Of a DNA stretch of 64,000 nt, positions 24,910-40,200 are shown in pieces (within the stretch, counting starts at the first letter, position 1; the number at the start of each line of letters is the position of its first letter). The notes under the pieces were generated by a model that was given only the letters and a program-made list of their open reading frames with translations, did no database searches and was not told the DNA's origin. The DNA lies in assembly GCA_965213625.1 (NCBI GenBank), contig CBDBZU010000004.1:480001-544000 (forward strand), written 5' to 3'. The stretch is from a bacterium. Lineage in GTDB: Bacteria; UBA8248. The translations under genes and the position numbers were made by a program.

Positions 24910-26583
24910 CTAACTTGGCGTCAGGCTCCAGACTTGCACAGCAATTTGCGACAGTTCTTGTTGTCGATTCTCAATAGCTTCAGTATCCCAAAATGGTATA
25001 TTCATAATCGATCGTGTGATTTCAATCCGGGATTGTTGGTAAACAGTCTTCTTGTCCTCGAAAGGATCATTATCTGCAATGACGTTTAAATTACTATCCA
25101 TGATCGTCAGATTGCCCAATCTCTTATAGTAATTGGCGGCATCCTCATCTGATATATGTCGCCAGTTTTCACATGGAGTTTGTGGCAAAATGTGCTCCAG
25201 ATTTACATCATCATGATGTTGATTGACACGTAACTCTTGGTTGCTACTCACGAAAGATTCGATAGTCCGCAAGTAATATCGAGCTAGGTAGTTCCTTGAA
25301 ACAGTTGCACGCGAAAATGCTTCCCCGAAACGTTGGTCACTTGGCAGTGACGCGCGGTTGAAGTCCAATAGTTGTTGAGCAGAAGTGATTTCTCCTACAG
25401 TAATGTTTTTCGCTGATGTGGAGAAAAGAGCCTCTAGTGTCCCACTACCACCAGAACCGCATATAAGAAAACGAACGGTCCATGAAACTAACATGGGCAG
25501 AGATTGCTGTATTTCAGCATCGTCAAACTCTCTAAGTATAGCGAGAATAAGGGGGCGGTTTTGAACAACACGAAGCTCCCTAAATGACGATATCGCGTCT
25601 TGTACTCTTGCACCAAGATCACGCCATCTTGAATTTGAGGAGTCATACAGAGCGACGTAGTCGGCAGCCGATTGATTTAAATGGACTGCTAAATTTACTG
25701 CTTGTTGTGTTCCTGAAACACGCTCCTTTATTCTGTCGTATAATTCGCGTTCTCTTGTTGTTCCGTACGTCGACGACCACACCTGACGAATAAAGGTCTT
25801 AATTGCTTGCTCGCGATCAACGCTTTCGATCCGACTCCTCATGCTGGTCCACGCGTCTTGAACTTCAGAGAGTCTCCGGTCGGACATTCTAAACAAGTAG
25901 TTCTTCAACAAATCAGTGATGGACAACTCAATGCCGCGATCATTAAGAACTTCGAATATGGTGTAAGCATTTGCTTCGCTGTTTACGCTAACAACAATGA
26001 CTTTGACATTGCTCTCAATGTAATCAAGCCAATCATTTAATACGTCAATCGGTTCGTGAGATGGTCCGACAATGGTTTGAACAAACTGTTGGGCGATCAA
26101 TTTTGCTTCTTGTATCCTTTTATGTGCCTCGGTGGAAAATTCGAGGTTGGTATCGTCCACAATCAATGCTTGAAAGAAGGGGTTGTCGCTTTGATTAAGC
26201 ACTAGATTGGGTTGAGACTCCAAGGAACGCCGATCCAGTTGTGCTATAAATTTGGACTGAACTATCTCTGCGCGTTGCGAGTCCCCTTTGTGCCTAAAAT
26301 AATTTCTTATTTCGGCGAGAAAGATCGTTGTCGATGCTAGGCGCTGTTGGCCGTCGATAACGTGGAATCTTTGATTGTTCCCAGGAGTTAGAACGATCGT
26401 GCCTAGAAAGTACTCGGGAGCATTTGCTCGTATGGCATCGCCAATGTCTCTTAGAAGGTCCGTGACTTGATCTTTTTCCCATGCAAAGGAGCGTTGATAA
26501 GGGGGAGTTTCGATCTTTTTGTCAGATATCAAATGGCCTATGCCATCTAAGTTGGTAAAAATGCGGTCGATCTCTTCGGGCAT
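24910..26583 (-). CDS. DUF262 + DUF1524 (GmrSD-like) nuclease
   Basis: PPYQRSFAW, IDGQQRL, IFEVLNDRG, NLEHILPQ and RLGNLTIM. Confidence 0.9.
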   Translation of the reverse strand: MPEEIDRIFTNLDGIGHLISDKKIETPPYQRSFAWEKDQVTDLLRDIGDAIRANAPEYFLGTIVLTPGNNQRFHVIDGQQRLASTTIFLAEIRNYFRHKGDSQRAEIVQSKFIAQLDRRSLESQPNLVLNQSDNPFFQALIVDDTNLEFSTEAHKRIQEAKLIAQQFVQTIVGPSHEPIDVLNDWLDYIESNVKVIVVSVNSEANAYTIFEVLNDRGIELSITDLLKNYLFRMSDRRLSEVQDAWTSMRSRIESVDREQAIKTFIRQVWSSTYGTTRERELYDRIKERVSGTQQAVNLAVHLNQSAADYVALYDSSNSRWRDLGARVQDAISSFRELRVVQNRPLILAILREFDDAEIQQSLPMLVSWTVRFLICGSGGSGTLEALFSTSAKNITVGEITSAQQLLDFNRASLPSDQRFGEAFSRATVSRNYLARYYLRTIESFVSSNQELRVNQHHDDVNLEHILPQTPCENWRHISDEDAANYYKRLGNLTIMDSNLNVIADNDPFEDKKTVYQQSRIEITRSIMNIPFWDTEAIENRQQELSQIAVQVWSLTPS

Positions 26584-26739: not shown

Positions 26740-29700
26740 TCACGAGGCTAGGGTAATTGAAATCGCGCGAGCACCTCGGCGGTTGAAAGCGAGCGAGCAT
26801 TTTGCTCGTGTTCTAGTAGACAACTTATCCCATTCGATAGGGTCACTGTCAGCGCGGGATGCAAAGATAATTTTTGGAAATGGGTACAATTTTAGAAATG
26901 CATAGCCCTCTTCTTTGCGTTCAACGCGACAATCATACATGATTGTGATGCCATCTCTTTCAGCAATGGCAGCTGCCTGTGTTCTGAATCGGCCCGGTGC
27001 TTTGTCATGAAGAGCTGTAAACAACTCGCCCGCTTTGTCATACTGGCCTTGAAGAAATAACTCACGAGCATACCAGAATTGGGCTTCGAAATTGTTGTCA
27101 CCTTTGGTGAAACCCCGTCTTAGATGATCAATTGCCGCGTCGTTTTCGTCAGACTTGATGAGGACACGGCCCATTTCAAGATGTGCGCGCTTACTGGCAG
27201 GATTGTCTTGCAGGCAAGCTTTCAAGACACACTTGCTACTCTCTAGGTCTTCTGACGCTTGATAAATGCGCGCCAGCCGAACGGCGAGCCAGTCCTGTCT
27301 TGGATTCAGATTGAAAGCGCGCTCAAGGGTCTTTTGAGCTCGATCAGTCTGAGCTATACATTCTCTAAAGGTTGCCTCTGTGGCCAACAATTGAGAGCTT
27401 TCTGGGAAGATTTGAAGGCCGCGTTGGATCACAGTTTCAGTTTCTTTAGCAGCTTCGACGAAGTCGTTAGGAGGTTTTGTATTGTCAGACACATTAAGTG
27501 AGTTTGACAGCTCCTTGAATTCATCAATAGCGAGGCGAGCGCGCGTATATAGGTCGTACTCGCTGGGCTGGCGAATATTTCCACCGAGTTTTTCACGAGT
27601 GAACCGTCTTAAGCTTCGCTTCCTTAGTGGGTCATCCGTATCATTGGCCATTCGGCGTGCAATTTCTGCTTGGGTATGTTGAATACTACGACTAGTTGAG
27701 TTTAGCTTAAATGCGTGTGTGGCCGCTTCTTCAGCTTGCACAAGCGATCCGCCACGATGCTGTATCTCAAAAACGGCTCTTTGATGCCAAACGAAAGAGT
27801 CGTTCGGCATTGTTTCTTGCGCACGGTCATAGAACAGTCGCCCGAGTTCGATGCTCGGAAACATGTCGGCAATGCCCCTTCCTTTAATCAAACGAGAGAA
27901 AGTCTCAAGGTCTGACGAGTAATCAATGTTCATGGCTTCGATTAGTCTCGCGAGAAGATCAAACTTGTCTTCTGGGCTGGGCAACATCTGGTTGAAGACT
28001 ATCTCGGCGACATGTTGATGGCGACTACGGTAGTAAACGTCACGTCTATGGTTGTCTTTGACGACATGCACGACATTTTCTAAGGGCTGGATCAATTCTG
28101 CTTGAAATTGCTCAAACCTAACCCCAGCGGCACGTGAAATGAGTCCAGCTCGTACGGGTGCATCGAATTGATGGAGGGCGCAAATATCAAGATATAGGTT
28201 ACGGGCAGCCGCTGGTTCAATGCGTCGGAATTCGTCAACGACAATTTCCTCGAAAGGAACTCCTAGAGTCGCTTCATGGAGAGCGACTAATAGCTGGCGT
28301 TCTGCCCTTTCGATGAATTTCCTGGTCCGATCCTCTGGGGAGAGATTTTTAAGTAGACCGAGAGCATCGTGCTGTTCTAATAGGTTGAGAAGTGTTTGAA
28401 TCTCCCGTTCGCTTAGATAACGGACAGGAAACTCTTGGTGTAAAAATCGTTCGAGATGCTCACAATAGATGTTCCACTCATTGTCTCTCTCGGCACCAAC
28501 AATGGTGAGCGGGATGGACTGAGATCGTGAGATGTTAAGTAACTTTCGCAGTTCATCTCGGACGAGTGCAACACGATCGACAAATAGAAATATACGTTTG
28601 CCCGTTAGATGATGAATTTCAGCAAGTGGTTCTATGCGCAAGCCAGCCGGAATTTCATTGAATAGGACAAGGTTATCGTAAGTAACACCTGCTTCCCAGG
28701 CGATGCGTTTGAGCGAGACACTCTTGCCATTGCCCCCTGGCCCTTTCAACATAAAAAATTCAGTTGTATCGCGTTCCTCTTCGGATAGAAGAACAGCGTC
28801 AACTAATACCGAGTCAGAAAACGAACGGTGGGCATCCAGATTTTGAAGTATGCAGCCCCAGCCATTGTCGTATCCATGGTAGAACTCACTAGGATTTTGA
28901 CTAGGAGCTGTCAGTCCTGAGTGAACATGCGTGGTATCGGTGTCGAGAAAACTTTTTAGAGACAATGATTCTGAAGGTTGCGCGATGCGGTAGTGTTTAC
29001 GGATAGATAGCTCCCCACCACCAATATTAACAGGAATCGCTCTCGCAAAATCAGGTACTGCTTGGTCAATTGTCCTTAGGAAATCCTCGAAGGTAGTTTC
29101 AACTGCAAACACATGGAGCTTTGCCCAGTATCGCTTTTCAAAGTCGCTAATCTTCGGAGATACATAATAGTAAGGTGGCCTATCGATGTCAGAATCAGTG
29201 AGGTCGAACAATAATTCTTGAATATGTGGATCGGAAATCGAATAGCCCGAAAAAATGATTGGATATTCAAATCCCAGATCACGAAACCGATTGTATAGAC
29301 GAGTTCTTTTCTTCCCGTAACTTGCGTATTGCTCATTGCCGAGGATAAGTGGGATTTCCAAATCCGCATAGGATTCGATACACCCATGTAGCTTATAGAA
29401 ACCGACGGGATTTGTTTCCTTATTAAGCCTTGAGTCAAAGTTGTCACCATCTTTTACTGTTTTGACTAGGGTTTGCTGCGATGCTGGCACGCTTGTGTAG
29501 GCTCTTTCGATAATGAGATCGAAATTTGTGGTAGCAATGGCGCGCCACTGGAATGTAGGAATCAACAAATGAAAGTCTGCGGGTTCAAATGGCATGAATA
29601 GTTCGGAAATATACCTTTGGAATTCGGTCAGTCCTGCTTCGTTGGCTGCCATAGCTGCTACGGCATTGAGTGGTTTCTCCATCAGTTCATCGTTCAAAAA

Positions 29701-29850
29701 TTTCTCGCAGAGCCGATAACGAAGGTCGTCGCCTTGCGGAATCTGGTCTCCATCGGGATGTTTGGCTTTCAGGCTTGCACCCGCACCAAGAAAAAGCACG
29801 GTACGTTGCTCTCTAACTGCGTCAATCAGGGCTGGAGGAATGTCGACCAC
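26740..29850 (-). CDS. SIR2-like + STAND P-loop NTPase + TPR + C-terminal OB/cold-shock-like protein (Avs/NLR-like defence)
   Basis: LFLGAGAS, TTNFD and KLHG. Walker A GPGGNGKS and Walker B FLFVD. Helical TPR-like repeats. C-terminal EGYAFL...IFASR. Confidence 0.8.
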   Translation of the reverse strand: MVDIPPALIDAVREQRTVLFLGAGASLKAKHPDGDQIPQGDDLRYRLCEKFLNDELMEKPLNAVAAMAANEAGLTEFQRYISELFMPFEPADFHLLIPTFQWRAIATTNFDLIIERAYTSVPASQQTLVKTVKDGDNFDSRLNKETNPVGFYKLHGCIESYADLEIPLILGNEQYASYGKKRTRLYNRFRDLGFEYPIIFSGYSISDPHIQELLFDLTDSDIDRPPYYYVSPKISDFEKRYWAKLHVFAVETTFEDFLRTIDQAVPDFARAIPVNIGGGELSIRKHYRIAQPSESLSLKSFLDTDTTHVHSGLTAPSQNPSEFYHGYDNGWGCILQNLDAHRSFSDSVLVDAVLLSEEERDTTEFFMLKGPGGNGKSVSLKRIAWEAGVTYDNLVLFNEIPAGLRIEPLAEIHHLTGKRIFLFVDRVALVRDELRKLLNISRSQSIPLTIVGAERDNEWNIYCEHLERFLHQEFPVRYLSEREIQTLLNLLEQHDALGLLKNLSPEDRTRKFIERAERQLLVALHEATLGVPFEEIVVDEFRRIEPAAARNLYLDICALHQFDAPVRAGLISRAAGVRFEQFQAELIQPLENVVHVVKDNHRRDVYYRSRHQHVAEIVFNQMLPSPEDKFDLLARLIEAMNIDYSSDLETFSRLIKGRGIADMFPSIELGRLFYDRAQETMPNDSFVWHQRAVFEIQHRGGSLVQAEEAATHAFKLNSTSRSIQHTQAEIARRMANDTDDPLRKRSLRRFTREKLGGNIRQPSEYDLYTRARLAIDEFKELSNSLNVSDNTKPPNDFVEAAKETETVIQRGLQIFPESSQLLATEATFRECIAQTDRAQKTLERAFNLNPRQDWLAVRLARIYQASEDLESSKCVLKACLQDNPASKRAHLEMGRVLIKSDENDAAIDHLRRGFTKGDNNFEAQFWYARELFLQGQYDKAGELFTALHDKAPGRFRTQAAAIAERDGITIMYDCRVERKEEGYAFLKLYPFPKIIFASRADSDPIEWDKLSTRTRAKCSLAFNRRGARAISITLAS

Positions 29851-30113: not shown

Positions 30114-30505
30114 TCCTTTAGCCATTCTCCACGATATTGGCACATGTTCTCTATAATGAACACAGAAAGGCTCTAGGACCGAGGGGTTGTCTTCATTCAG
30201 TGTCTCATAATTCCTTTCTTCATTCGCCACAGACGCGAATCGAGCACTTGCATGGTGTCCTATCCGGTGATTCCTGATCCGACGTTGGATAGCCGGACTC
30301 TAGAGTAGCGCTGCACGATGGCCCTACAGAAATAGGCGATACCAATTTGCCACAGTGTGATGTTGCCGGGAGGGAGGGAGTCCATCCCATCGCTTGTAAC
30401 CATTCGGTCGTATGGTGATGGTGTCCGCGTAGCTCATCACGGACATTCGAAGAGATTCCCCTGATGCTCTGGTAACATCTTTCGGCATGTGGCAAACAAG
30501 TCGGC

Positions 30506-32821
30506 ATGAGGATGCTCGCAGAAGATGTTCAGGCGGAAGATTCGTTGGTCGAGAGGCCGGATGAGCCATGGCCTCATTCCCCTGATTTGTCCACAACCGC
30601 AGAGGCGTACTGGCGTTCGCAGTACGAGCGCGAGCGTGCGCGCGCGGAGGAGGCGGAGGCTCGCTGCGAGGAGTTGCGGGGTAAGGAGGTGGCTTCGCGC
30701 GCGCGGGCGGGTTCGCTGAAGTGGTGTCTCGACAACTGCCGGAGAAAGCTTGCCGCGCGCGTCAAGAAGTTGAAGGAAGTCCGCCGCGCCGCGAAGCAGG
30801 ACGTCCAGGCGCTGGAAGCGGAAGTGGCTCGACAGGAGAAGCTTCTTCGCAAAGCCGGTGTCGAGCCGGGGGAGCGCAGCCCGCTCGAGTCGCTGCGCAA
30901 GGAGGTCGCCCGGTTGAACAAGGCTCTCTCGGGCGCGTTGCCACCGAAGGAGGCCGCGCGGCTGCGCCGGGTCGTGGAGAAGCGGGCGAAGACGATAGAG
31001 TCTCTTCGCGAGGAGCTTGAGGGGCGGGAGAAGGATGTCGTCCGTCTGAAGGATCGGCTGGCGTGGGAGAAGCTGGAGACAGCGGATCACAAGAAGACTA
31101 TTCAATATCGTGAAGAGGAGCTTATCCGGCTCTACGGGAAGTTGCGGGAATCGCGCGACGAGTTGCGTGTCTCGCTCCGGGCCGCAGGCAGAGTGAAGGA
31201 GGGGCTGAAGGAGCGGCTGTTGCGCGCGAAGGAGGCGGCGTGCTCGAGGACGCCTCGTTCGGACGAGGCGCTTCGCAAGGCCCTGGGGAGGTCGCGGCGT
31301 CAGAAGACGGCGCTCGGGTCCCTGACCAGGGAGAACGCGCGGTTGCGCCGTGCACTACGCAAGTCGGAGACCCGCCGGGCGCGGCTGGAGGCCGAGCTCG
31401 CGAAGCTTCGCGCCACCGGAGCGGTGCTGGCGAGGAGGCTGTTCGGGCGCAGGAGCGAGCGGCAGGAGAAGCCGCGCTCGGAGCGCAGGCGCGGCGGGCA
31501 GCCCGGTGCCCGGGGCCATGGCCGCACCCCGCGGCCCGCGCTCGGGGAGAGGACCGAAGTCCGCAACCCGCCGCCCGGTGCGCGCGTCTGCGCCGGTTGC
31601 GGGCGGCCCTACGCGGCGAACGGCGCGCGTGTATCGAGTATCGTCGAGATTGAAGTCTCGGCCTACAGGCGCGTCATCCACCGTCCGAGGTGGCGTCGGG
31701 GGTGTGAATGCGCATCGTCTCCGGTGGAAGTGTCGGCGCCGCCCGCCCCGCGCCTGTTCACGGGCACGGCTTACGGGACGAGCGTGTGGGCGCGCTTCCT
31801 GTTCGAGCGCTACGCCTGCTTCCGCCCGCTCAATCGCGTCGCCGCGTGGTTGTCGGACCAGGGGCTTGCCGTCTCGGCGGGGACGCTGGGCGACAGCGCG
31901 CACCGCTTCACGCCGCTCTTCGATCCGGTGGCTGCGGCGACCCTCGCCCGCCAGAACGAGTCGCAGTTGCGCCACGGGGACGAGACAACGTGGCGCATCC
32001 AGTCGCTTCGCGAGCAGGAGCGCTCGAGCCGCGCCTGGCTGTGGGCCTCGTTAAGCGCAGACGCCGTCTACTTCCACGTCGACCCCTCGCGGAGCGCCGA
32101 TGTCGCGATGAAGCTGTTCAGCGCGGCCGGCCGCCATACGGTCCTCGTCTGCAACCGCTACAGCGCCTACAAGAAGCTGGCGCGCGAACTCGGGGGTCTG
32201 GTCACTCTCGCATCATGTTGGGCACATCAAAGAAGAACCTTTATCGACTGCGCGGCCGGCGAGGCGCGCCTGACGCCGTGGTGCGAGAGGTGGATCGGGC
32301 GGATCGCCTTGCTCTACCGTCTGAACGAGGCGCGCCTGGCCCGTTACGACTCAGGTCTCGAACACCAGGACGCGGCGTTCAACGCGGCGCACGACGAATT
32401 GAAGAAGGCGCTCGAGGGCCTGTTCGCGCAAGCCCGACGCGAACTGGCCGCCCTGTCGGCGCAGGCGCGCGAGGGCAAGGCGCTTCGCTCGCTGCTGAAC
32501 CACCGCGAGGGGCTGAGCGTCTTCCTCGAGCGCCCCTGGGTGCCGACAGATAATAACGCCATTGAGAGAGTGCTCAGGGGTCCCGTGATCGGCAGACGGC
32601 TCTCGTTCGGCTCCGTGAGCGAGGCTGGCGCCCGGTTTACGGCGATGATGTACTCCGTCCTCGGAACGCTCTCCTCGAACGGCATCGACCCGCTCCGCTG
32701 GCTCGAGGCATGGCTCACCGCCTGCGCTGAGAACGGCGGCCGCTCGCCCGGGGACCTCTCCGCGTGGCTGCCCTGGTCGATGGGCGCGGAGCGCAGACGC
32801 GCCCTCATGGCGCCGGGATGA
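30506..32821 (+). CDS. IS66-family DDE transposase with a long N-terminal coiled coil
   Basis: LFGRRSE, GGQPGARGH, CAGCG, HGDETTWR, CWAHQRR and TDNNAIERVLR. The usual DxYxxY reads NRYSAY. Confidence 0.9.
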   Translation: MRMLAEDVQAEDSLVERPDEPWPHSPDLSTTAEAYWRSQYERERARAEEAEARCEELRGKEVASRARAGSLKWCLDNCRRKLAARVKKLKEVRRAAKQDVQALEAEVARQEKLLRKAGVEPGERSPLESLRKEVARLNKALSGALPPKEAARLRRVVEKRAKTIESLREELEGREKDVVRLKDRLAWEKLETADHKKTIQYREEELIRLYGKLRESRDELRVSLRAAGRVKEGLKERLLRAKEAACSRTPRSDEALRKALGRSRRQKTALGSLTRENARLRRALRKSETRRARLEAELAKLRATGAVLARRLFGRRSERQEKPRSERRRGGQPGARGHGRTPRPALGERTEVRNPPPGARVCAGCGRPYAANGARVSSIVEIEVSAYRRVIHRPRWRRGCECASSPVEVSAPPAPRLFTGTAYGTSVWARFLFERYACFRPLNRVAAWLSDQGLAVSAGTLGDSAHRFTPLFDPVAAATLARQNESQLRHGDETTWRIQSLREQERSSRAWLWASLSADAVYFHVDPSRSADVAMKLFSAAGRHTVLVCNRYSAYKKLARELGGLVTLASCWAHQRRTFIDCAAGEARLTPWCERWIGRIALLYRLNEARLARYDSGLEHQDAAFNAAHDELKKALEGLFAQARRELAALSAQAREGKALRSLLNHREGLSVFLERPWVPTDNNAIERVLRGPVIGRRLSFGSVSEAGARFTAMMYSVLGTLSSNGIDPLRWLEAWLTACAENGGRSPGDLSAWLPWSMGAERRRALMAPG

Positions 32822-32825
32822 CGCC

Positions 32826-33698
32826 GTGACCGAGTGCCGCTACTACGGACGCGACTTCACGACGGAAGAGATGGCGCTGCTGCGCGCGCTGATCGCCGGT
32901 CCTCCTGCGCTCAACCGCCATGCGCTCTCGAAGGAGTTCTGCCGCCGTATCGGCTGGTTCAAGCCCGACGGCGGACTCAAGGACATGATGGCCCGGGTGA
33001 CCATGCTCGCCATGCACAGGGACGGCCTGATCTCGCTCCCCCCGCCGAAGCACCCGCGAGCCCCGGCGCGGCCAATCGTCTTCGGACCAGATACCGAAGC
33101 ACCCCTCATCCCGGCGCCGGCGACTCTCGACGAGGTCCGCCCCATCGGGATGCGCATCGCCGTGCGCGGAACCCGCGAGGGCAGGCTCTGGAACGAGTTC
33201 GTCGCACGCTACCACTACCTCGGCTACAAGACCCTCGTCGGCGCCCAGATGCGCTACGCCGTACATGACCGCGACGGCAGGCCCCTCGCCATGCTCGGCT
33301 TCTCCACCGCCGCCTGGAAACTCGCCCCGCGCGATGCCTTCATCGGCTGGACGCCGCAGTTGCGCGAGAAGAACCTCCCCCTCGTGATCGACAACCCGAG
33401 GTTCCTCATCCTGCCATGGATCAAAATCCCCAACCTCGGCTCGCACCTCCTCGCCATCGTCCGCAGGCGCCTGCCCGGAGATTGGACCGAGCGCTATGGC
33501 ACGACCCCCGTCCTCGTCGAGACCTTCGTCGAGACGCCCCGCTACACCGGCGCCGTCTACAGGGCTTCGGGATGGATTCACGTCGGAACCACACAGGGAC
33601 GAGGACGTTATGACAGGTACAATCGTCATGACAAACCCAAAAAGGACATCTGGCTAAGGCCCCTCCGAAACAACTGGAAGCAAGTACTCAAGCGCTGA
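32826..33698 (+). CDS. DUF4338 (DruA-like) domain protein
   Basis: WNEFVARYHYLG, GAQMRY, RDAFIGW, RFLILPW, ETFVE, GAVYRASGW and G.TQGRGR. Confidence 0.85.
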   Translation: MTECRYYGRDFTTEEMALLRALIAGPPALNRHALSKEFCRRIGWFKPDGGLKDMMARVTMLAMHRDGLISLPPPKHPRAPARPIVFGPDTEAPLIPAPATLDEVRPIGMRIAVRGTREGRLWNEFVARYHYLGYKTLVGAQMRYAVHDRDGRPLAMLGFSTAAWKLAPRDAFIGWTPQLREKNLPLVIDNPRFLILPWIKIPNLGSHLLAIVRRRLPGDWTERYGTTPVLVETFVETPRYTGAVYRASGWIHVGTTQGRGRYDRYNRHDKPKKDIWLRPLRNNWKQVLKR

Positions 33699-33732
33699 AA
33701 CAACCCCCATCACCCTGCCACCGAATGCTTAC

Positions 33733-33930
33733 CGAAGATGCTCCGACATTATCGCCCCGGGAACACAGAGGTTTGAATATCTCCGCTTTCGGTTTGATTA
33801 CATTTTGCGGAAAGCAAATGCCGATCGAAATCAGGAACCGCATATATTTCTCAATGATATCAATAGGATAGCGGAATTTGATAGCTGTTGGAAATCCTCT
33901 GCAGCCTGTAAACGGACGTGGAACATTATC
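33733..33930. repeat. Diverged intergenic repeat R1
   Basis: Collinear similarity to 39978-40175 (ACACAG..TTTGAAT, TTTGATTAC, GGAAA.CC, AAACGG.CG) and to 35899-35966. Confidence 0.6.
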
Positions 33931-34142
33931 AACGAGCTCGTTATCCTGCTGGCCCACTTCAGGCTATTGAACGTTATCTACCTGCCAAGAGCTGATCGCC
34001 TCTCCCCTGCGCGCCCACTGGCGAGTATTTTCTCATCGACGACGAAACATCCCCCGAACTCCAGTAGCGTTTCGCTCGGCACCTCCCGCTCGTGCTATGA
34101 ACAGCCCCAACCGGTCGGTACCGGACCCCGAGGCTTGCGAAC

Positions 34143-34178
34143 TTGCGAAATGTCAGAAACTATTATATATTTCTGACA
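34143..34178 (+). promoter_or_regulatory. Sigma70-like promoter overlapped by an inverted-repeat operator of the AbiE operon
   Basis: TTGCGA-17-TATATT. TGTCAGAAA-N10-TTTCTGACA at 34151-34178. Confidence 0.7.
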
Positions 34179-34193
34179 ATGAGGGGATGTCTC

Positions 34194-34787
34194 ATGGAGA
34201 ATCTGAGCGAAGCGATCCTGTCTTATGCAAGAAACCGGCCCGAAGGTGTTCCGTTGAGCGCCAAGGGGTTGCTGCATCTCGGCAGCCGCGCTGCGGTAGA
34301 TCAGTCCTTGTCGCGTCTTGCCCGTCGCGGCGACCTGCTGCGCGTAGGACGGGGCCTCTACGTCCTTCCGGTGAAGAGCCGGTTCGGCAACCGGGCGCCC
34401 TCGCTCCACAAGACGGTCGAGGCGCTGGCGGCCCAGCGCGGGGAGCGAATCGCTTCCAGCGGGGCCATGGCGGCGAATGCGCTCGGCCTGACTACGCAGG
34501 TGCCGGTCAAGCCTGTCTTTCTGACCTCTGGCCGCGACCGCAAATTGAGACTCGGTCGCCAGGAGGTCGAGTTGCGGCACGCTCCGTCATGGCAGCTCGT
34601 GCTGAGTGGCCGCAAGGCGGGAGACGCCGTCCGGGCGCTCGCCTGGCTCGGGCCGGAGAGGGCCGGGGAGGCGCTCAATGTGATCGGGGGATCGCTGAGC
34701 CTCAAGGAGCGCGGGGAGCTGGCCGACGTCAGCGCACAGATGCCGGGGTGGCTGGCGGAACCTGTGAGTCGGTTGGCTCATGGCTGA
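34194..34787 (+). CDS. Type IV TA antitoxin, AbiEi-like (DUF6088)
   Basis: SRAAVDQSLSRL, RVGRGLY and AANALGLTTQVP. Overlaps the toxin start. Confidence 0.85.
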   Translation: MENLSEAILSYARNRPEGVPLSAKGLLHLGSRAAVDQSLSRLARRGDLLRVGRGLYVLPVKSRFGNRAPSLHKTVEALAAQRGERIASSGAMAANALGLTTQVPVKPVFLTSGRDRKLRLGRQEVELRHAPSWQLVLSGRKAGDAVRALAWLGPERAGEALNVIGGSLSLKERGELADVSAQMPGWLAEPVSRLAHG

Positions 34788-35796
34788 GCGTTTTCTGGAT
34801 CTCTCTAATCGTGACCGTCGGGAAGTGCTCGAAGTCGCCGCCGGCGCGTCAGGAAGGCCGGTGTATCTGCTGGAAAAGGACATCTGGGTCGTCTGGGCCA
34901 TCCAGACGCTCTTTGAAGCGCCCATAGGCGCGCCGCTCGTCTTCAAGGGCGGCACATCCCTGTCCAAGGCGTATCGCGCCATTGGGCGTTTTTCCGAGGA
35001 TGTCGACCTGACCTATGACATCCGCGCGCTCGCGCCCGACCTCGTCGGCGACAGCCCGGGAGCTCTGCCGACAAGCCGGAGCCAGGAACAGCGATGGACT
35101 AAGGAGGTCCGCAGACGTCTGGCCGCCTGGATGCATGACGAGGCCGTCCCGTTCCTGGAGAAGAGGTTATATGCGGCAGAGGCGGACGGCGAGATCAGGG
35201 TCGAGGAAGACGAACTCTTCATCCGCTATGCGCCGCTGAGCGAGGGGACGGGCTATGTTCGACCTGAGGTGAAGCTGGAATTCGGCGCACGCGCCACGGG
35301 GGAGCCGAACACGCCGATGCCTATCCGTTGCGACGCGGCCGACCATGTGCCGGATGTCGAATTCCCGGCAGCAAGACCGCGAGTCATGCGGGTCGAACGT
35401 ACTTTTTGGGAGAAGGCGACGGCCGCGCATGTCTACTGTCTGCAGGGGCGATTACGGAGCGAGCGCTTCGCGCGGCACTGGTACGATCTGACGCGGCTCG
35501 AGGGCGCCGGCCTGGCGCAACGCGCCCTCGCGGACCGGGAAACCGCCAATTCCGTGGCGGCGCACAAGGCCGTGTTCTTTGGCGAAAAAGATGCGTCGGG
35601 AAACTGGATAGACTACGAAGTGGCCGTTACGGGCGGTCTGCAACTTGTCCCGACGGGAGACTCCCTGACCGCACTGGCGGACGACTACGCACGGATGGTT
35701 GAAGACCGGCTGCTGATCGAGGAGGCCGAGTCGTTCGATGTCCTGATGGATACCTGCCAGGCAATCGCGGAGGAGGCGAACCGGCTCGACTATTAG
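34780..35796 (+). CDS. AbiEii/AbiGii nucleotidyltransferase toxin
   Basis: LEKDIWV, VFKGGTSLSK, RFSEDVD, ERTFWEK and RHWYDL. Confidence 0.92.
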   Translation: MAERFLDLSNRDRREVLEVAAGASGRPVYLLEKDIWVVWAIQTLFEAPIGAPLVFKGGTSLSKAYRAIGRFSEDVDLTYDIRALAPDLVGDSPGALPTSRSQEQRWTKEVRRRLAAWMHDEAVPFLEKRLYAAEADGEIRVEEDELFIRYAPLSEGTGYVRPEVKLEFGARATGEPNTPMPIRCDAADHVPDVEFPAARPRVMRVERTFWEKATAAHVYCLQGRLRSERFARHWYDLTRLEGAGLAQRALADRETANSVAAHKAVFFGEKDASGNWIDYEVAVTGGLQLVPTGDSLTALADDYARMVEDRLLIEEAESFDVLMDTCQAIAEEANRLDY

Positions 35797-35852
35797 ACGA
35801 CTCACACCTTCCTGGACAGCATATCCATGATTCCTGCTCATAAGTAATCCAT

Positions 35853-35966
35853 AGATGCTTCGCTTTAGCCCGACAGGAGTGCTCTAGACTGCGCAGAAAT
35901 TCTGCGGAAGGCGGGTTCCGAACAGGAATGGGAACAATGATATTTTCTAATAACATCAATTGGATA
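35853..35966. repeat. Diverged intergenic repeat R2 (partial)
   Basis: ATTCTGCGGAAGGC...TATTTTCTAATAACATCAATTGGATA aligns with R1 ATTTTGCGGAAAGC...TATTTCTCAATGATATCAATAGGATA. Confidence 0.5.
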
Positions 35967-36036
35967 AGAATATCCCATAGTCAATGAAGGCGATTTTCTT
36001 TCTCTAAACGAGCGAATTATATAAGGGGTTGGTTCA

Positions 36037-37884
36037 ATGCAGGTCAGCCGACTATCACTAAAGAACTTTCGTGGGAGCAAGTCAGCCGAGCTAGATTTCT
36101 ATGGACATACCTTACTTGTCGGAGAAAACAATGTCGGCAAGTCCACGATTTGCGAAGCACTTGAGTTTGCGCTTAGCCCGGAAAGGCAAAACCGGTTTCC
36201 TGTTGTTGACGAGTTCGATTTCTACAATGCCGCCTATCTCGATGAAAACGAAGAGCCTATCGAGATCCGAATCGAGGTGCTGTTGACGGAAGTGACGCCA
36301 ACGATCGAGAAAGCTTGTGGCAACTATTTGGAACGCTGGGACCCAGCGAGTCGGCGTATTTTAGGCCAAGGTGAGGTCGACCAAGTCGACGGTGCGGGGC
36401 ATGTTTGGTGCCTGCGGCTTCTGACCATCGCGCGCTACAATAAAGAAGAAGACGAATTCGAGACTGCAACGCACTACGCAAAAGCTTATGACCCTGAGAA
36501 AGAGGATGACAGTCGCGTTCCCCGCGTGATAAAGCGTAATTTTGGTTTTCTCTACCTACGTGCCCTTCGCACCGGATCGAGAGCGCTCAGCCTAGAGCGC
36601 GGCTCACTTCTCGACGTGATTCTCCGTATCCAGAACCTCCAGACAGGCATCTGGGAGCATGTCCGCCGCCGGCTCGAAGCATTAGACCCGCCAATTGAAG
36701 AAGGCGCCACCAAGCTCACGCCCGTGCTTCAGACCATCGAATCCCGCCTCGCCGAGTACATTGCGATCGACAAGCCTGGTGATGCGACACGGTTGTTCGT
36801 TTCGCAACTCACACGCGAGCATCTTCGAAAGACCCTGAGTTTCTTTATCTCCGTTACCAAAGACCAGAATCCCGTCCCATTCCAAAAAGTCGGTACTGGC
36901 ACGCTCAATACTTTAGTGCTGGCGCTATTGAGCTTCATCGCTGAGCTTAAAGAAGAGAACGTCATCTTCGCTATGGAGGAGCCGGAAATCGCGCTTGCTC
37001 CCCATACACAGAGGCGTATTGCGACCTATCTGTTGAACAAGACGACACAGTGCTTTGTCACTTCCCACTCACCATACGTGATCGAGACCTTCGATCCCGA
37101 ACGCATTATCATCCTGCGGCGGGAGAATGATTCGACCGTGACATACAAACGGGTAAACCTCAGCTTGGAGGTGAAAGCCAAGACGTACCGCCGCTATATC
37201 CGTCGCGGGTTCGCCGAAGCGATGTTAGGTCGCGGCGTCATTGTCACTGAAGGTATCACGGAACAACTTGCCCTCCAGGCCGTAGCTGAGAAGCTGGAGG
37301 CTGCTGACGATGTTCGCTATCCGCTCGACGTGTCTGGTGTCACAATCATTACCGCCGAAGGCGATGGCGGTATTCCTGAATTCGGCCGTTTCTTCGTCTC
37401 TCTCGATTTGCCGACCTTTGCTTTCTTCGACAAGAAGGCACGTTCCCAGAGGGAACAGGATGCTCTGGAGCAGGCCGGTTTTGAAATCCTCAACGAGACT
37501 ACTTACGCCGGCATGGAGGAACTGCTAGCCGTTGAGGTGCCTTTGCATCATCAGTGGTCCTACCTTGAACAAATTAGAGACTCCGGCATTGCACCAAAGA
37601 TTTTTATACCCGCTACGTGTCCCACAGACGACAAAGTGCGCGACTTCACTCGTCAGATGCTGAAGGACGGCAAAGGGTGGGGTCGGGCAGCCGACTTAAT
37701 CGAACGCTGTGCTGTGGCTGAGCTGCCAGCCAGTATCGTCGACTTCCTCGAGCGGATATACAAGCTGTTCCCGCGTCCCAAGGTGCCAGACCTCGTAGAT
37801 TCTGATGAAGAGGCGGCAGGAGAATCGGAAGAAGGATCCGAGCCAGCTGAGGCTGTAAAGACACAGGCTACGGAGGGTGAATGA
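36037..37884 (+). CDS. OLD-family ABC-ATPase/TOPRIM nuclease (Gabija GajA-like)
   Basis: LKNFRG, GENNVGKST, MEEPE, TSHSP and TOPRIM IVTEGITE. Confidence 0.85.
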   Translation: MQVSRLSLKNFRGSKSAELDFYGHTLLVGENNVGKSTICEALEFALSPERQNRFPVVDEFDFYNAAYLDENEEPIEIRIEVLLTEVTPTIEKACGNYLERWDPASRRILGQGEVDQVDGAGHVWCLRLLTIARYNKEEDEFETATHYAKAYDPEKEDDSRVPRVIKRNFGFLYLRALRTGSRALSLERGSLLDVILRIQNLQTGIWEHVRRRLEALDPPIEEGATKLTPVLQTIESRLAEYIAIDKPGDATRLFVSQLTREHLRKTLSFFISVTKDQNPVPFQKVGTGTLNTLVLALLSFIAELKEENVIFAMEEPEIALAPHTQRRIATYLLNKTTQCFVTSHSPYVIETFDPERIIILRRENDSTVTYKRVNLSLEVKAKTYRRYIRRGFAEAMLGRGVIVTEGITEQLALQAVAEKLEAADDVRYPLDVSGVTIITAEGDGGIPEFGRFFVSLDLPTFAFFDKKARSQREQDALEQAGFEILNETTYAGMEELLAVEVPLHHQWSYLEQIRDSGIAPKIFIPATCPTDDKVRDFTRQMLKDGKGWGRAADLIERCAVAELPASIVDFLERIYKLFPRPKVPDLVDSDEEAAGESEEGSEPAEAVKTQATEGE

Positions 37885-39614
37885 CTTTCGTCTCCTGCTC
37901 TGATCGGGACCGCATTCTAGCAGCGGACGACCATGTGCTCGTTACCGGAGGACCTGGCTGCGGGAAAACGACCGTTGCGCTCCACAAAGCGTTGCAACGG
38001 ATTGGAGCCGGGTTGCTTCCTGGGCAGAAGGTGCTGTTTCTCAGTTTCTCTCGAGCGGCAGTCACCCGCATCGTCCAAGCCTCCCGCAAGGATTTGCCAA
38101 AAGAGTACCGCAGGCAACTCGACATTCAGACCTTCCATTCCTTCTGTTGGCGGCTAGTGCAGGGACACGGTTATCTCCTCGGTGCCACGTCGCCCATACA
38201 GCTCTTGCCACCGCACGATGAGCGAGCGATACGAAACGGTGCCAAGAGTGACGATCCGGCCTGGGATGCCGAACGGGAACGCCTCTTCCTCGAAGAGGGA
38301 CGCATCGTCTTCGACCTTTTTGCGCCGAAGGCACTCGAACTTTTTCAAAGGAGCGCTGCGCATCGACAACTGGTAGCAGACCGTTATCCGTTGATCATCG
38401 TGGACGAGGCACAGGACACGGGCACGGAACAATGGGCCTGCATGGAAGCGCTCGCTGGTCTTACGCAACTCATCTGCCTCGCCGATCTCGACCAGCAGAT
38501 TTACGATTTCCGGCGCGACGTGAGCCCTGAGCGCCTGAAACAGATAATGACGGCGCTTGCGCCGTTGGAAGTTGACCTCGGAGTCCAGAATAAACGTAGT
38601 CCTCGTGCCGAGATCGTCAAGTTTGGTAATGATATCCTTTTACAATCGCCGCAAGGTTCCTCTTATACTGGTGTCAGTCAGTTATCGTTCCGTCCGAACG
38701 CTGAGCGGCGCGACCGTGCCATTCGCAATGCTGTCGGGATACTTCGGAAGAAGATCACTGATACGACGGGGACACCACCGCTGAGTATCGGCTACCTGAC
38801 GAACTGGGGTAAGGGTGTAACAATTGTCGCCCGTGCACTTCAGGGCGGCGAAGGTATCAAGGAAATCCCTCACCGCGTCGTTATGGATGAGGCCGAGGTG
38901 CTTCTCGCCACACGCGTCGTTGCCCTCTGCCTGGAACCGGTTGAGGATGTTTGGGAAAATCTAGCAACAGGTCTTGACCTTATTGCGGAGCTATATCGGG
39001 CGCGGGGCAATGCCAAGAAAGTTGACCAGTTGAGAAGGAACGCCGCCGATGCCCGAGAGAAAAGGGTGCGTGGTAACGCAAAATGCCCACGTTCTCTGAA
39101 GGACATTCTGGAGCATCTGCAGGCCTATCCGCTCAGCGGAAGTCCGGGACAAGATTGGCTGACCATTCGGCGCAAGTTTGAGGCCAGTGACGTAGCAGAG
39201 CTCAAGTTGGTCGCCCGCCAAGTCATCTATCTAATGGGCTTCAACCGAGGACTGCGAATTTCTGATGCCCTTGCCGAAGTCTGGCAACAACGCGGCAGAT
39301 ATGAGAGGGCACGTGCCCTCATCGAGGCGGCAGTTACCGAGGACCAGATCATCGGCAGCAACGGCGATTTGAACGGCATCAACGTCATGACCATGCACAA
39401 ATCCAAGGGGAAGGAATTCGACGGGGTCATCATCCTGCATCTGGGCAATAACATGTCGCCTTTGTCACCGGACTATGAGTCCGCACCGCATATGAAGAGT
39501 CGACGTTTGCTCCGGGTTGGAATAACACGGGCGAAGCAGCACGTTCTAATGCTGACGGATGTATTCAGTCCTTCGCCACTTCTGAAGGGACACAATTTAA
39601 ACTATCAACTATGA
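37881..39614 (+). CDS. UvrD-like SF1 helicase (Gabija GajB-like)
   Basis: GGPGCGKT, TFHSF, VDEAQD, TMHKSKGKEFD and VGITRAK. ATGA overlap with the OLD gene. Confidence 0.88.
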   Translation: MTFVSCSDRDRILAADDHVLVTGGPGCGKTTVALHKALQRIGAGLLPGQKVLFLSFSRAAVTRIVQASRKDLPKEYRRQLDIQTFHSFCWRLVQGHGYLLGATSPIQLLPPHDERAIRNGAKSDDPAWDAERERLFLEEGRIVFDLFAPKALELFQRSAAHRQLVADRYPLIIVDEAQDTGTEQWACMEALAGLTQLICLADLDQQIYDFRRDVSPERLKQIMTALAPLEVDLGVQNKRSPRAEIVKFGNDILLQSPQGSSYTGVSQLSFRPNAERRDRAIRNAVGILRKKITDTTGTPPLSIGYLTNWGKGVTIVARALQGGEGIKEIPHRVVMDEAEVLLATRVVALCLEPVEDVWENLATGLDLIAELYRARGNAKKVDQLRRNAADAREKRVRGNAKCPRSLKDILEHLQAYPLSGSPGQDWLTIRRKFEASDVAELKLVARQVIYLMGFNRGLRISDALAEVWQQRGRYERARALIEAAVTEDQIIGSNGDLNGINVMTMHKSKGKEFDGVIILHLGNNMSPLSPDYESAPHMKSRRLLRVGITRAKQHVLMLTDVFSPSPLLKGHNLNYQL

Positions 39615-39709
39615 TGGAGCAGGTGTGATAGAGGACTGGTTTAGTCATGGCAAATCCCAGAGTGGATAGAGAAGGTTTACGCCAATACGGACCCATGCTT
39701 TGCTTACCT

Positions 39710-39735
39710 CCATCACCCTGCCACCGAATGGTTAC
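39710..39735. repeat. Extra IS66 right-end copy
   Basis: CCATCACCCTGCCACCGAATGGTTAC, 25/26 identical to 33707-33732. Confidence 0.9.
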
Positions 39736-39741
39736 TCGTTC

Positions 39742-39977
39742 GTAAGGATTCGGTCGTGGGGTGATAGAGCGTACCACAGACTCTCCTGAGTGGGTGTTAA
39801 CGACGCGGGCCAATGTCTCCCACGTTCAGTGTGAATGCTGCTGATTCACCAAGACCACCTGAATATCCTACCACTGCCGAAGTGGTGAGGGTACTGCTCT
39901 GGTCTGACTCTTTTCGGACAATGCTTCATGTAGGCACCGGTTTCAGCACGGCCATCACCCTGCCACCGAATGCTTAC
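39742..39977 (+). mobile_element. 236-bp non-autonomous MITE with IS66 ends
   Basis: Begins GTAAGGATTCGGTCGTGGGGTGATAG (IRL type) and ends CCATCACCCTGCCACCGAATGCTTAC (identical to the IRR). Confidence 0.8.
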
Positions 39978-40200
39978 GAATGATTACCGACAGGGATACT
40001 TCGAAATACACAGGAGTTTGAATTCGCCTGCTTCCGTTTTGATTACTTTCAGTATAAGGGCAGTATTAGCGAGACCGGAAAGAATGAAACTTTCTTAATA
40101 ATTTCAACAGACTACAAGGATCTCACCGCCGCCGGAAACCCCCCACCGTCTGAAAACGGGCGATAAATATCGATAAATTCACGGGGTATATCGATAAATT
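39978..40200. repeat. Diverged intergenic repeat R3, ending in three CGATAAAT repeats
   Basis: Collinear with R1. CGATAAAT at about 40161, 40171 and 40192. Confidence 0.6.

Follow-up and report, generated by a model that had tools for sequence, protein, structure and literature searches.

Elements of the IS66 family carry terminal inverted repeats of about 20–30 bp beginning with GTAA and generate an 8-bp target duplication; the family is large, and its mechanism and choice of targets are poorly understood. Insertion at chosen sites is known in other mobile elements: IS1397 and ISKpn1 target REP/BIME sequences, IS1111-type elements target integron attC sites, and Tn7 targets attTn7. Here we describe E1, a full IS66-family element located in a stretch of 64,000 nucleotides (the window) from a bacterium of the UBA8248 lineage (GenBank assembly GCA_965213625.1, contig CBDBZU010000004.1, positions 480,001 to 544,000). 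In this bacterial lineage, E1 and its non-coding derivatives very probably have a preference for insertion at the upstream edge of a dispersed repeat, called R below, and such targeting is unusually precise for the IS66 family. Like E1, the IS1397/ISKpn1, IS1111-type and Tn7 elements insert at a defined place relative to a recognized repeat or conserved sequence, and in the case of Tn7 the cut site can likewise be outside the recognized sequence. E1 differs from all of these in its transposase family, its 200-bp unstructured target, and its use of two registers and either orientation.

Within its own family, E1 presumably resembles the single-transposase type (the ISBst12-like group), with which it shares a DDE transposase, GTAA repeats of about 26 bp, the 8-bp duplication (in relatives) and the absence of tnpA and tnpB. 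Unlike that type, it carries a second gene encoding a DUF4338/GNAT protein, shows strong site targeting in one lineage and frequently occurs in tandem. No title in the literature searched reports a site-specific IS66 element (ISfinder was outside this search), no publication linking DUF4338 with IS66 was found, and none of those on DUF4338 deals, by its title, with transposons. We regard E1 as a real site-targeted variant of IS66. The features of the window on which the analysis is based are the following:

30380..30395, no strand assigned: right-end remnant of another IS66-like element, minus its last two bases (full end found elsewhere: ...CCATCGCTTAC)
30396..33732, + strand: E1, full IS66-family element, 3337 bp, two genes (inverted repeat and direct repeat, Pfam, NCBIfam)
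30396..30421, + strand: E1 left terminal inverted repeat, 26 bp, tip GTAA (repeat search)
30506..32821, + strand: IS66 transposase, 771 aa (PF03050, NF033517)
32826..33698, + strand: DUF4338/DruA-like protein, 290 aa (PF14236)
33707..33732, + strand: E1 right terminal inverted repeat, 26 bp, tip GTAA (string search)
33733..33743, no strand assigned: 11-base spacer from the E1 tip to R1, in the far register (tip to TTGATTAC = 61)
33744..33939, + strand: R1, a copy of R (CGACA at 33744–33748, invariant TTGATTAC at 33794–33801; nhmmer 5.4e-48; covariance model 73.7 bits)
34097..39614, + strand: AbiEi/AbiEii pair and Gabija-like pair (ATPase-TOPRIM, UvrD helicase) (Pfam)
35900..36017, + strand: partial R upstream of gajA (nhmmer 2.5e-5; alignment to R1)
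39710..39735, + strand: solo right end with 1 mismatch, 6 bases left of the left tip of the next feature
39742..39977, + strand: miniature inverted-repeat transposable element (MITE), non-coding derivative, 236 bp (left end 39742–39767, right end 39952–39977)
39978..39987, no strand assigned: 10-base spacer from the MITE tip to R3 (sequence)
39988..40180, + strand: R3, a copy of R (CGACA at 39988–39992, TTGATTAC at 40040–40047; nhmmer 4e-48; covariance model 69.2 bits)

The assignment of E1 to the IS66 family is based on its DDE transposase, on its 26-bp inverted repeats beginning with GTAA and on the 8-bp target duplication found in its relatives. The transposase consists of a long coiled-coil N-terminal part followed by the IS66 DDE domain at residues 422–710; it matches PF03050 at 1.4e-51, above the Pfam cut-off, and the NCBIfam model transpos_IS66 (NF033517) at 8.6e-78 (262 bits, cut-off 180), and has 1595 relatives at E ≤ 1e-20. 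The genes tnpA and tnpB are missing: there are 84 bases from the left repeat to the start of tnpC, and no TnpB domain was detected by Pfam in the open reading frames (ORFs) of the element. The DruA-like gene starts 4 bases past the transposase stop. The left repeat shows 88% complementarity to the solo end at 39710–39735, itself one base off the right end of E1, and the remnant at 30380–30395 abuts the left tip. A second full copy, E2, is present at C4:73523–76893; since its DruA-like part, which is 92% identical, contains one internal TAG and its transposase match is split into two pieces, E2 is probably broken.

An earlier note on this DNA had started from the right ends of E1 and the MITE, described as identical and as followed by diverged copies of one repeat. 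This description was found to be accurate: the 26-mer at 33707–33732 recurs exactly at 39952–39977 (26/26) and with one mismatch at 39710–39735, always on the + strand, with matches in 0/100 shuffles; ACACAG starts 30 bases past each end, at 33763 and 40008; and the local alignment of the two flanks (43 columns) scores 42, as compared with a mean of 17.2, a standard deviation of 2.2 and a maximum of 27 in 500 shuffles. Outside the 26-base ends, the MITE has nothing in common with the interior of E1, and no ORF of 80 aa lies wholly inside it, an 82-aa ORF (39565..39813, − strand) entering from outside. The note had concluded that two independent insertions occurred at an equivalent place. This conclusion is strengthened by the clean duplications observed in relatives, but the contrast between identical ends and diverged flanks is a weak argument alone, because selection for transposase binding may keep the ends identical.

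R is about 200 bases long and consists of a CGACA(G/C)G block, about 13 variable bases, a core ending in the invariant TTGATTAC and conserved blocks downstream. A profile built from four right-end flanks (those of E1, the MITE and two further right-end-like sequences of this genome) matches 33734–33939 and 39978–40180 at E of about 5e-48 and identifies 24 chromosomal copies at E < 0.001. With a sequence-only covariance model built from 19 copies, at least 27 copies were counted in this genome and at least 34, 40, 47 and 22 in four relatives, these numbers being lower bounds, with 150 candidates scored per genome. The copies of this genome form co-oriented groups, about 70% of them have no IS end, and of about 19 real ends present, 7 have R 0–13 bases past the tip. 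The partial R before gajA retains the first block together with two thirds of the module on its 3' side and lacks the core of about 31 bases ending in TTGATTAC; the R core may be a separable unit.

The relationship between the element and R was assessed in related genomes, 15 of 61 of which carry the DruA-like gene (12 of the 22 other members of the genus, and 2 of the 7 genomes in a second family of the class). The genome G013 harbors 13 near-identical copies of the element at 10 loci, and at seven of these it adjoins the upstream edge of R, with R past the right end in four cases and, inverted, past the left end in three. The probability of at least 7 of 10 loci falling at R by chance is 8.8e-25, given 34 R copies in 4.6 Mb. 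Perfect 8-bp duplications were found directly outside the inverted repeats at 8 of the 10 loci, both at R sites (L044, L046, L047, L049 and L053) and at non-R sites (L050–L052); at L046, the duplicated 8 bases are the first block of R itself. In the genomes G042, G008 and G022, all of the nine additional loci are at R edges. Other R-edge duplications are clean at L060/L066 (far register) and L063/L078, those of L060 and L063 being perfect, and 7/8 at L074. Altogether, both ends were read at 21 loci, and 18 of these adjoin R, 13 via the right end and 5 via the left, a preference that is not significant (p = 0.096). In an independent set, that of the species-representative genomes, 12 of the 16 loci belonging to the lineage directly adjoin R; one of the remaining loci has R just past an intron at the tip, and three have R 1.3–2.1 kb away. 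The suggestion in the earlier note that the flanking repeat is the target and not a part of the element is therefore upheld by copies in 12 related genomes, which lie at the same R edge with clean duplications. As regards the empty R sites it asked for, an IS-free homologue of R1 plus AbiE is present in G020, but the search for an empty allele of the L070 insertion with its right flank in 23 genomes of the genus yielded only paralogous copies of R.

The distance from the tip to TTGATTAC in 24 distinct junctions is either 50–53 (14 junctions) or 61–64 (10 junctions), and no values occur in between. Counting the first T of TTGATTAC as 0, the duplicated 8 bases lie at about −51 to −44 in the near register, where they correspond to the CGACA block of R, and at about −61 to −54 in the far register, where they are unconserved bases just upstream of R which differ in each case. 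E1 (61), E2 (63) and the MITE (62) all use the far register, while gene-less derivatives of 122 bp in the same genome are in the near one (50–52). A third family of IS66-like ends, that of the remnant beside E1, lies 62 and 61 bases from the R core at C4:316949 and C4:927585, respectively. The heptamer CGACA(G/C)G alone cannot explain the choice of site, since it occurs 1329 times in the chromosome; together with the variability of the far-register 8-mers, this suggests that the cut site is not the recognized feature and that the position seems to be measured from R. The transpososome would thus ignore the 8 bases which are cut and would be placed, as if by a ruler, from the conserved blocks of R, and the fact that the two registers are one helical turn apart suggests an approach from one face of the DNA, beside something bound at R. 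Since gene-less derivatives use the same registers, the ends, with the proteins supplied in trans, would be sufficient. The derivatives of 122 bp, which have IS66-type ends, are the following; two of the four are at R edges and three carry an intron at one tip:

C4:21240–21362, 122-bp derivative
C4:3427263–3427385, 122-bp derivative
C4:4117325–4117447, 122-bp derivative
C4:4124702–4124824, 122-bp derivative

Tandem pairs were observed at 3 of the 10 G013 loci. At L047 one 8-mer is present three times, and at L049 two 8-mers are shifted by one base relative to each other, a result that only two separate insertion events can give. The element is bounded by its GTAA-tipped 26-bp repeats and makes an 8-bp duplication, with R left outside, past either end; as the duplication recreates the site, second strikes yield tandems split by the same or a one-base-shifted 8-mer. 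Junctions consisting of a right end, 8 bases and a left end also occur in R-less Proteobacterial genomes (L127, L131, L135 and L089), so that the family has the additional trait of inserting next to an end already in place. In the window, the solo right end and the MITE fit this pattern.

Several observations weigh against preferential insertion at R, or limit its extent. All the genomes compared are metagenome assemblies. Comparison of the flanking 8-mers reveals no 8-bp target duplication for E1, E2 or the MITE in this genome, so that the proof of insertion comes from relatives; in E2, an intron splits the left tip, and the 8-mer expected for a target duplication was not found beyond this intron. 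Closely related ends are found in both registers. At L060 and L062, the tip and the 8-mer are the same and R is identical over about 60 bases, and some junctions may therefore have spread by recombination. In a phylogeny of the DruA-like protein, the copies adjoining R group in a single clade (support 93/85) which coincides with one host lineage, and the determinants of the element and of the host are consequently inseparable. Outside this lineage, in Proteobacterial and Acidobacterial genomes, all of the 21 clean duplications lie at unrelated sites, which are all different, and in the few loci of other phyla adjoining an R-like copy (4 of 62, with the copy 20–60 bases past the right tip) the spacing is longer, with 28–39 bases before CGACA.

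These outside loci belong to a large family. The IS66/DruA family comprises 2515 protein clusters at E ≤ 1e-5, and at least 396 stretches were confirmed in the species-representative genomes, of which 78 loci were read, including Alpha- and Gammaproteobacteria and Bryobacterales; the end pair was found in 54 of the 78 loci, and an 8/8 duplication in 26 of these 54, of which 21 are outside the lineage. Targeting as a property of the whole family, which the earlier note had suggested, is contradicted by the insertions outside the lineage. Its idea of homing to a conserved, island-associated site holds as far as the R edge in this lineage is concerned, but R is dispersed (22–47 copies per genome) and has weaker copies in other phyla. 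Weaker R-like modules were detected in 4 of 5 genomes of other phyla (18, 12, 8, 5 and 0 matches), and some of them are preceded by other IS66-type ends. G061 (Ca. Rariloculaceae; L175, L176) has five R-like copies at the end of a 5-kb repeat, two copies of which are 97% identical. This repeat carries phytoene/squalene synthase, HMG-CoA synthase-like, HU/IHF-type and MerR-type genes, and the MerR-type ORF extends at its end into the R-like copy. The plasmid collection gave two distant matches (40% identity) from one organism, one of which falls under a gene annotated as ISAs1 family transposase.

The alternative which survives best is that the host makes the R edge a hotspot for any element able to use it, for instance through a bound protein or bent DNA, and that the IS proteins read nothing specific; we hold it to be possible, although rather unlikely. 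It would explain why three different families of IS66-like ends share the same registers and why close relatives of E1 in other phyla insert almost anywhere; a spacing of one turn fits a bound protein, and three R copies also have a hairpin repeat that stops just before their upstream edge. However, only IS66-type ends are found at the R edge, the IS110 of the window being elsewhere, and the 4 of 62 copies of other phyla that adjoin R-like modules suggest an affinity carried by the element. As to what reads R (the transposase, the DruA-like protein or a host protein), a reader encoded by the element has slightly less than an even chance in our estimation, a host factor or the shape of the DNA is clearly less probable, and the remainder is left to other possibilities.

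It is far less probable that the junctions all go back to one or a few old IS–R junctions, multiplied through duplication, gene conversion or recombination among copies of R. The sequences shared by L060 and L062, the identity of L056 and L057 on both sides and the block exchange within R-like sequence suggested by the G020 comparison would all agree with such copying. The bases between the tip and R nevertheless differ in nearly all of the 24 junctions, at 8 loci independent events are proved by duplicated 8-mers past the other end of the IS, and three unrelated end families as well as MITEs occupy the same registers. There is even less in favor of random insertion followed by the survival of copies at a harmless spot upstream of R, which we consider most improbable: R does lie between gene blocks, where insertions should be tolerated, but selection cannot yield a sharpness of ±2 bases in two registers or repeated strikes on the same 8 bases, and intergenic DNA far exceeds the R edges in the genome. 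That R might be a tail of the element, extending beyond the inverted repeat and moving with the IS, hardly deserves credence, because, although R is found past the right ends of E1, E2 and the MITE and at the right end in 13 of the 18 R-adjacent loci, the 8-bp duplications bracket the inverted repeats exactly and leave R outside, R abuts the left end at 5 loci, most R copies of this genome have no IS end, and the divergence between R1 and R3 is far greater than that between the ends.

The DruA-like protein is a candidate reader of R. This 290-aa protein matches PF14236 at 3.6e-37 (Pfam), and its model (pLDDT 93.8, alignment of 39 relatives) assigns a GNAT fold to residues of about 100–290: 188 Foldseek matches were obtained at E ≤ 0.001, those listed being GNAT enzymes, and 205 chains match the model at Z ≥ 8. 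The GNAT acyl-CoA binding motif is Q/R-x-x-G-x-G/A, and a conserved R-V-x-N-L-A-S stretch appears to occupy its position in the alignment of DruA-like sequences. Phage Mu Mom, a protein which modifies DNA, is the best structural match (8bv8_B; Z 14.3, rmsd 3.7 over 167 residues), with only 12% identity; the next GNATs have Z ≤ 12.5. A search of the PDB sequences with the DruA-like profile gave nothing below E 0.8. In an excerpt of PMC10853773, DUF4338 is called a GNAT.

In the model, residues 1–70 comprise a hairpin plus three helices. Folded alone, they reach a pLDDT of 66, with a best match at Z 6.2 (a small terminase DNA-binding domain) and with Myb/homeodomain proteins near Z 5. Since matches at Z ≤ 6.2 are too weak, this part was not assigned to a named DNA-binding fold, and we describe it as weakly helix-turn-helix (HTH)-like. 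A Mom-like GNAT with such an N-terminal part allows a putative role at DNA.

The PF14236 domain is also that of DruA in Druantia, a system composed of DruA with DruB–D and the DruE helicase. The gene of E1 has no DruB–E neighbors and is paired with a transposase, to which it is fused in relatives; the locus was rejected as a Druantia system, since its neighbors are the transposase and AbiE and no adjacent DUF1998-type helicase was found by Pfam among the 49 ORFs of the window. The DUF4338/DruA domain has 8657 cluster representatives at E ≤ 0.001 and was found fused to IS66 transposases (P0178, P0195 and P0198), to Tn5/IS4-type transposases (P0200, P0209, P0245 and P0259) and to an IS630-type transposase (P0252). 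The existence of fusions to three kinds of transposases makes it a recurrent transposase partner, and DUF4338/DruA is thereby set in the context of transposition, with partners, as neighbors or in fusions, from at least three transposase families.

R also occurs at the head of gene blocks. R1 precedes the AbiE pair, and the partial R precedes the Gabija-like pair. The genes located downstream of R are diverse; G022 has ten same-strand R copies within 45 kb, and over 40 kb of this stretch, ORFs in either direction lie between eight R copies. When G020 (L143 3134–3780) is compared with the window (35401–40163), AbiE is followed within about 130 bases by a sequence resembling the 3' part of R3, without Gabija or the MITEs, so that the Gabija block looks like an insertion bounded by R-like sequence. 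These comparisons, made on sequences, lead us to infer that R is a border module of accessory gene blocks. If R heads accessory and defense blocks, repeated homing would build arrays of the form IS – R – block – MITE – R, of which E1, AbiE, Gabija and the MITE would be an example in the window. E1 and the MITE, which have the same orientation, flank AbiE and Gabija (30396–39977) in the manner of a composite transposon; because the 8-mers on the outer sides are not the same, nothing indicates that this block moved as one unit.

A broader and distinctly doubtful proposal is that IS66/DruA elements and R constitute one system extending across phyla, in which a reader encoded by the element, possibly the HTH-like, Mom-like GNAT, sets the distance of the transposase from R, and repeated homing builds arrays of blocks. 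If this were true, the arrays could serve to transfer or swap entire blocks from one genome to another, and the system would represent a mode of protein-guided targeting new for a DDE transposase as well as a cassette system of a new type. In any case, the combination of sharp natural targeting with relatives that insert almost anywhere, which can serve as controls, makes target choice in IS66 directly testable on plasmids carrying variants of R, and our data suggest that R is a conserved boundary of accessory and defense gene blocks which occurs in several phyla.

Other identities were considered for R. An integron attC-like hairpin site was rejected because RNAalifold predicted no pairs in the first 135 bases of 19 copies. 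R is not a known or structured RNA either, in the absence of a consensus structure and of Rfam matches (none at the gathering score in the window, and none at E ≤ 10 in 33650–34150). A simple scan for sigma-70 promoters gave no + strand site within R1 or R3 (4 in the region, as against 3.2 expected). R was also examined as an inward-facing mimic of an IS tip (GTAA...TTAC) by means of a weight matrix from 27 real tips; the median of 4.4 bits, as compared with a background 95th percentile of 8.7, is not significant. No tRNA genes were present beside R in the five loci inspected. A second repeat, containing a G+C-rich hairpin, often stops within a few bases of R on the upstream side and, in inverted form, is located after some IS right ends:

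C4:211525–211624, hairpin repeat
C4:3547877–3547976, hairpin repeat
C4:71256–71344, hairpin repeat
C4:28773–28842, hairpin repeat
L020, L036 and L053, further loci with the hairpin repeat

The defense island around E1 comprises two GmrSD genes, a SIR2-STAND-TPR gene, AbiEi/AbiEii, the Gabija-like pair and an IS110 element. Its further contents are a split GmrSD (2153–3857), an intact GmrSD (3842–4753), an ankyrin-repeat protein (24910–26583) and the 1036-aa SIR2-STAND-TPR protein (26740–29850).

Lastly, a group II intron (Rfam RF02005; 132 and 122 bits) was found exactly at the outer tip of E1-family ends, at the following places:

L001 3238–3455, − strand (near C4:73523), group II intron at IS tip
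L016 4025–4241, + strand (near C4:3545955), group II intron at IS tip
L122, L129 and L130, further loci with this intron

The homing of group II introns into IS terminal repeats has a precedent in RmInt2, which lies in the inverted repeats of ISRm17 according to an excerpt of PMC4615759. The present intron belongs to another intron model (RF02005) and occupies another IS, and its junction recurs in several phyla. It takes the place of the last base or bases of the tip (...TTAT, then TGCGCC), and the presence of the same junction in records of Rhodospirillales and Ca. Rariloculaceae indicates that this intron lineage homes into E1-family tips across phyla.

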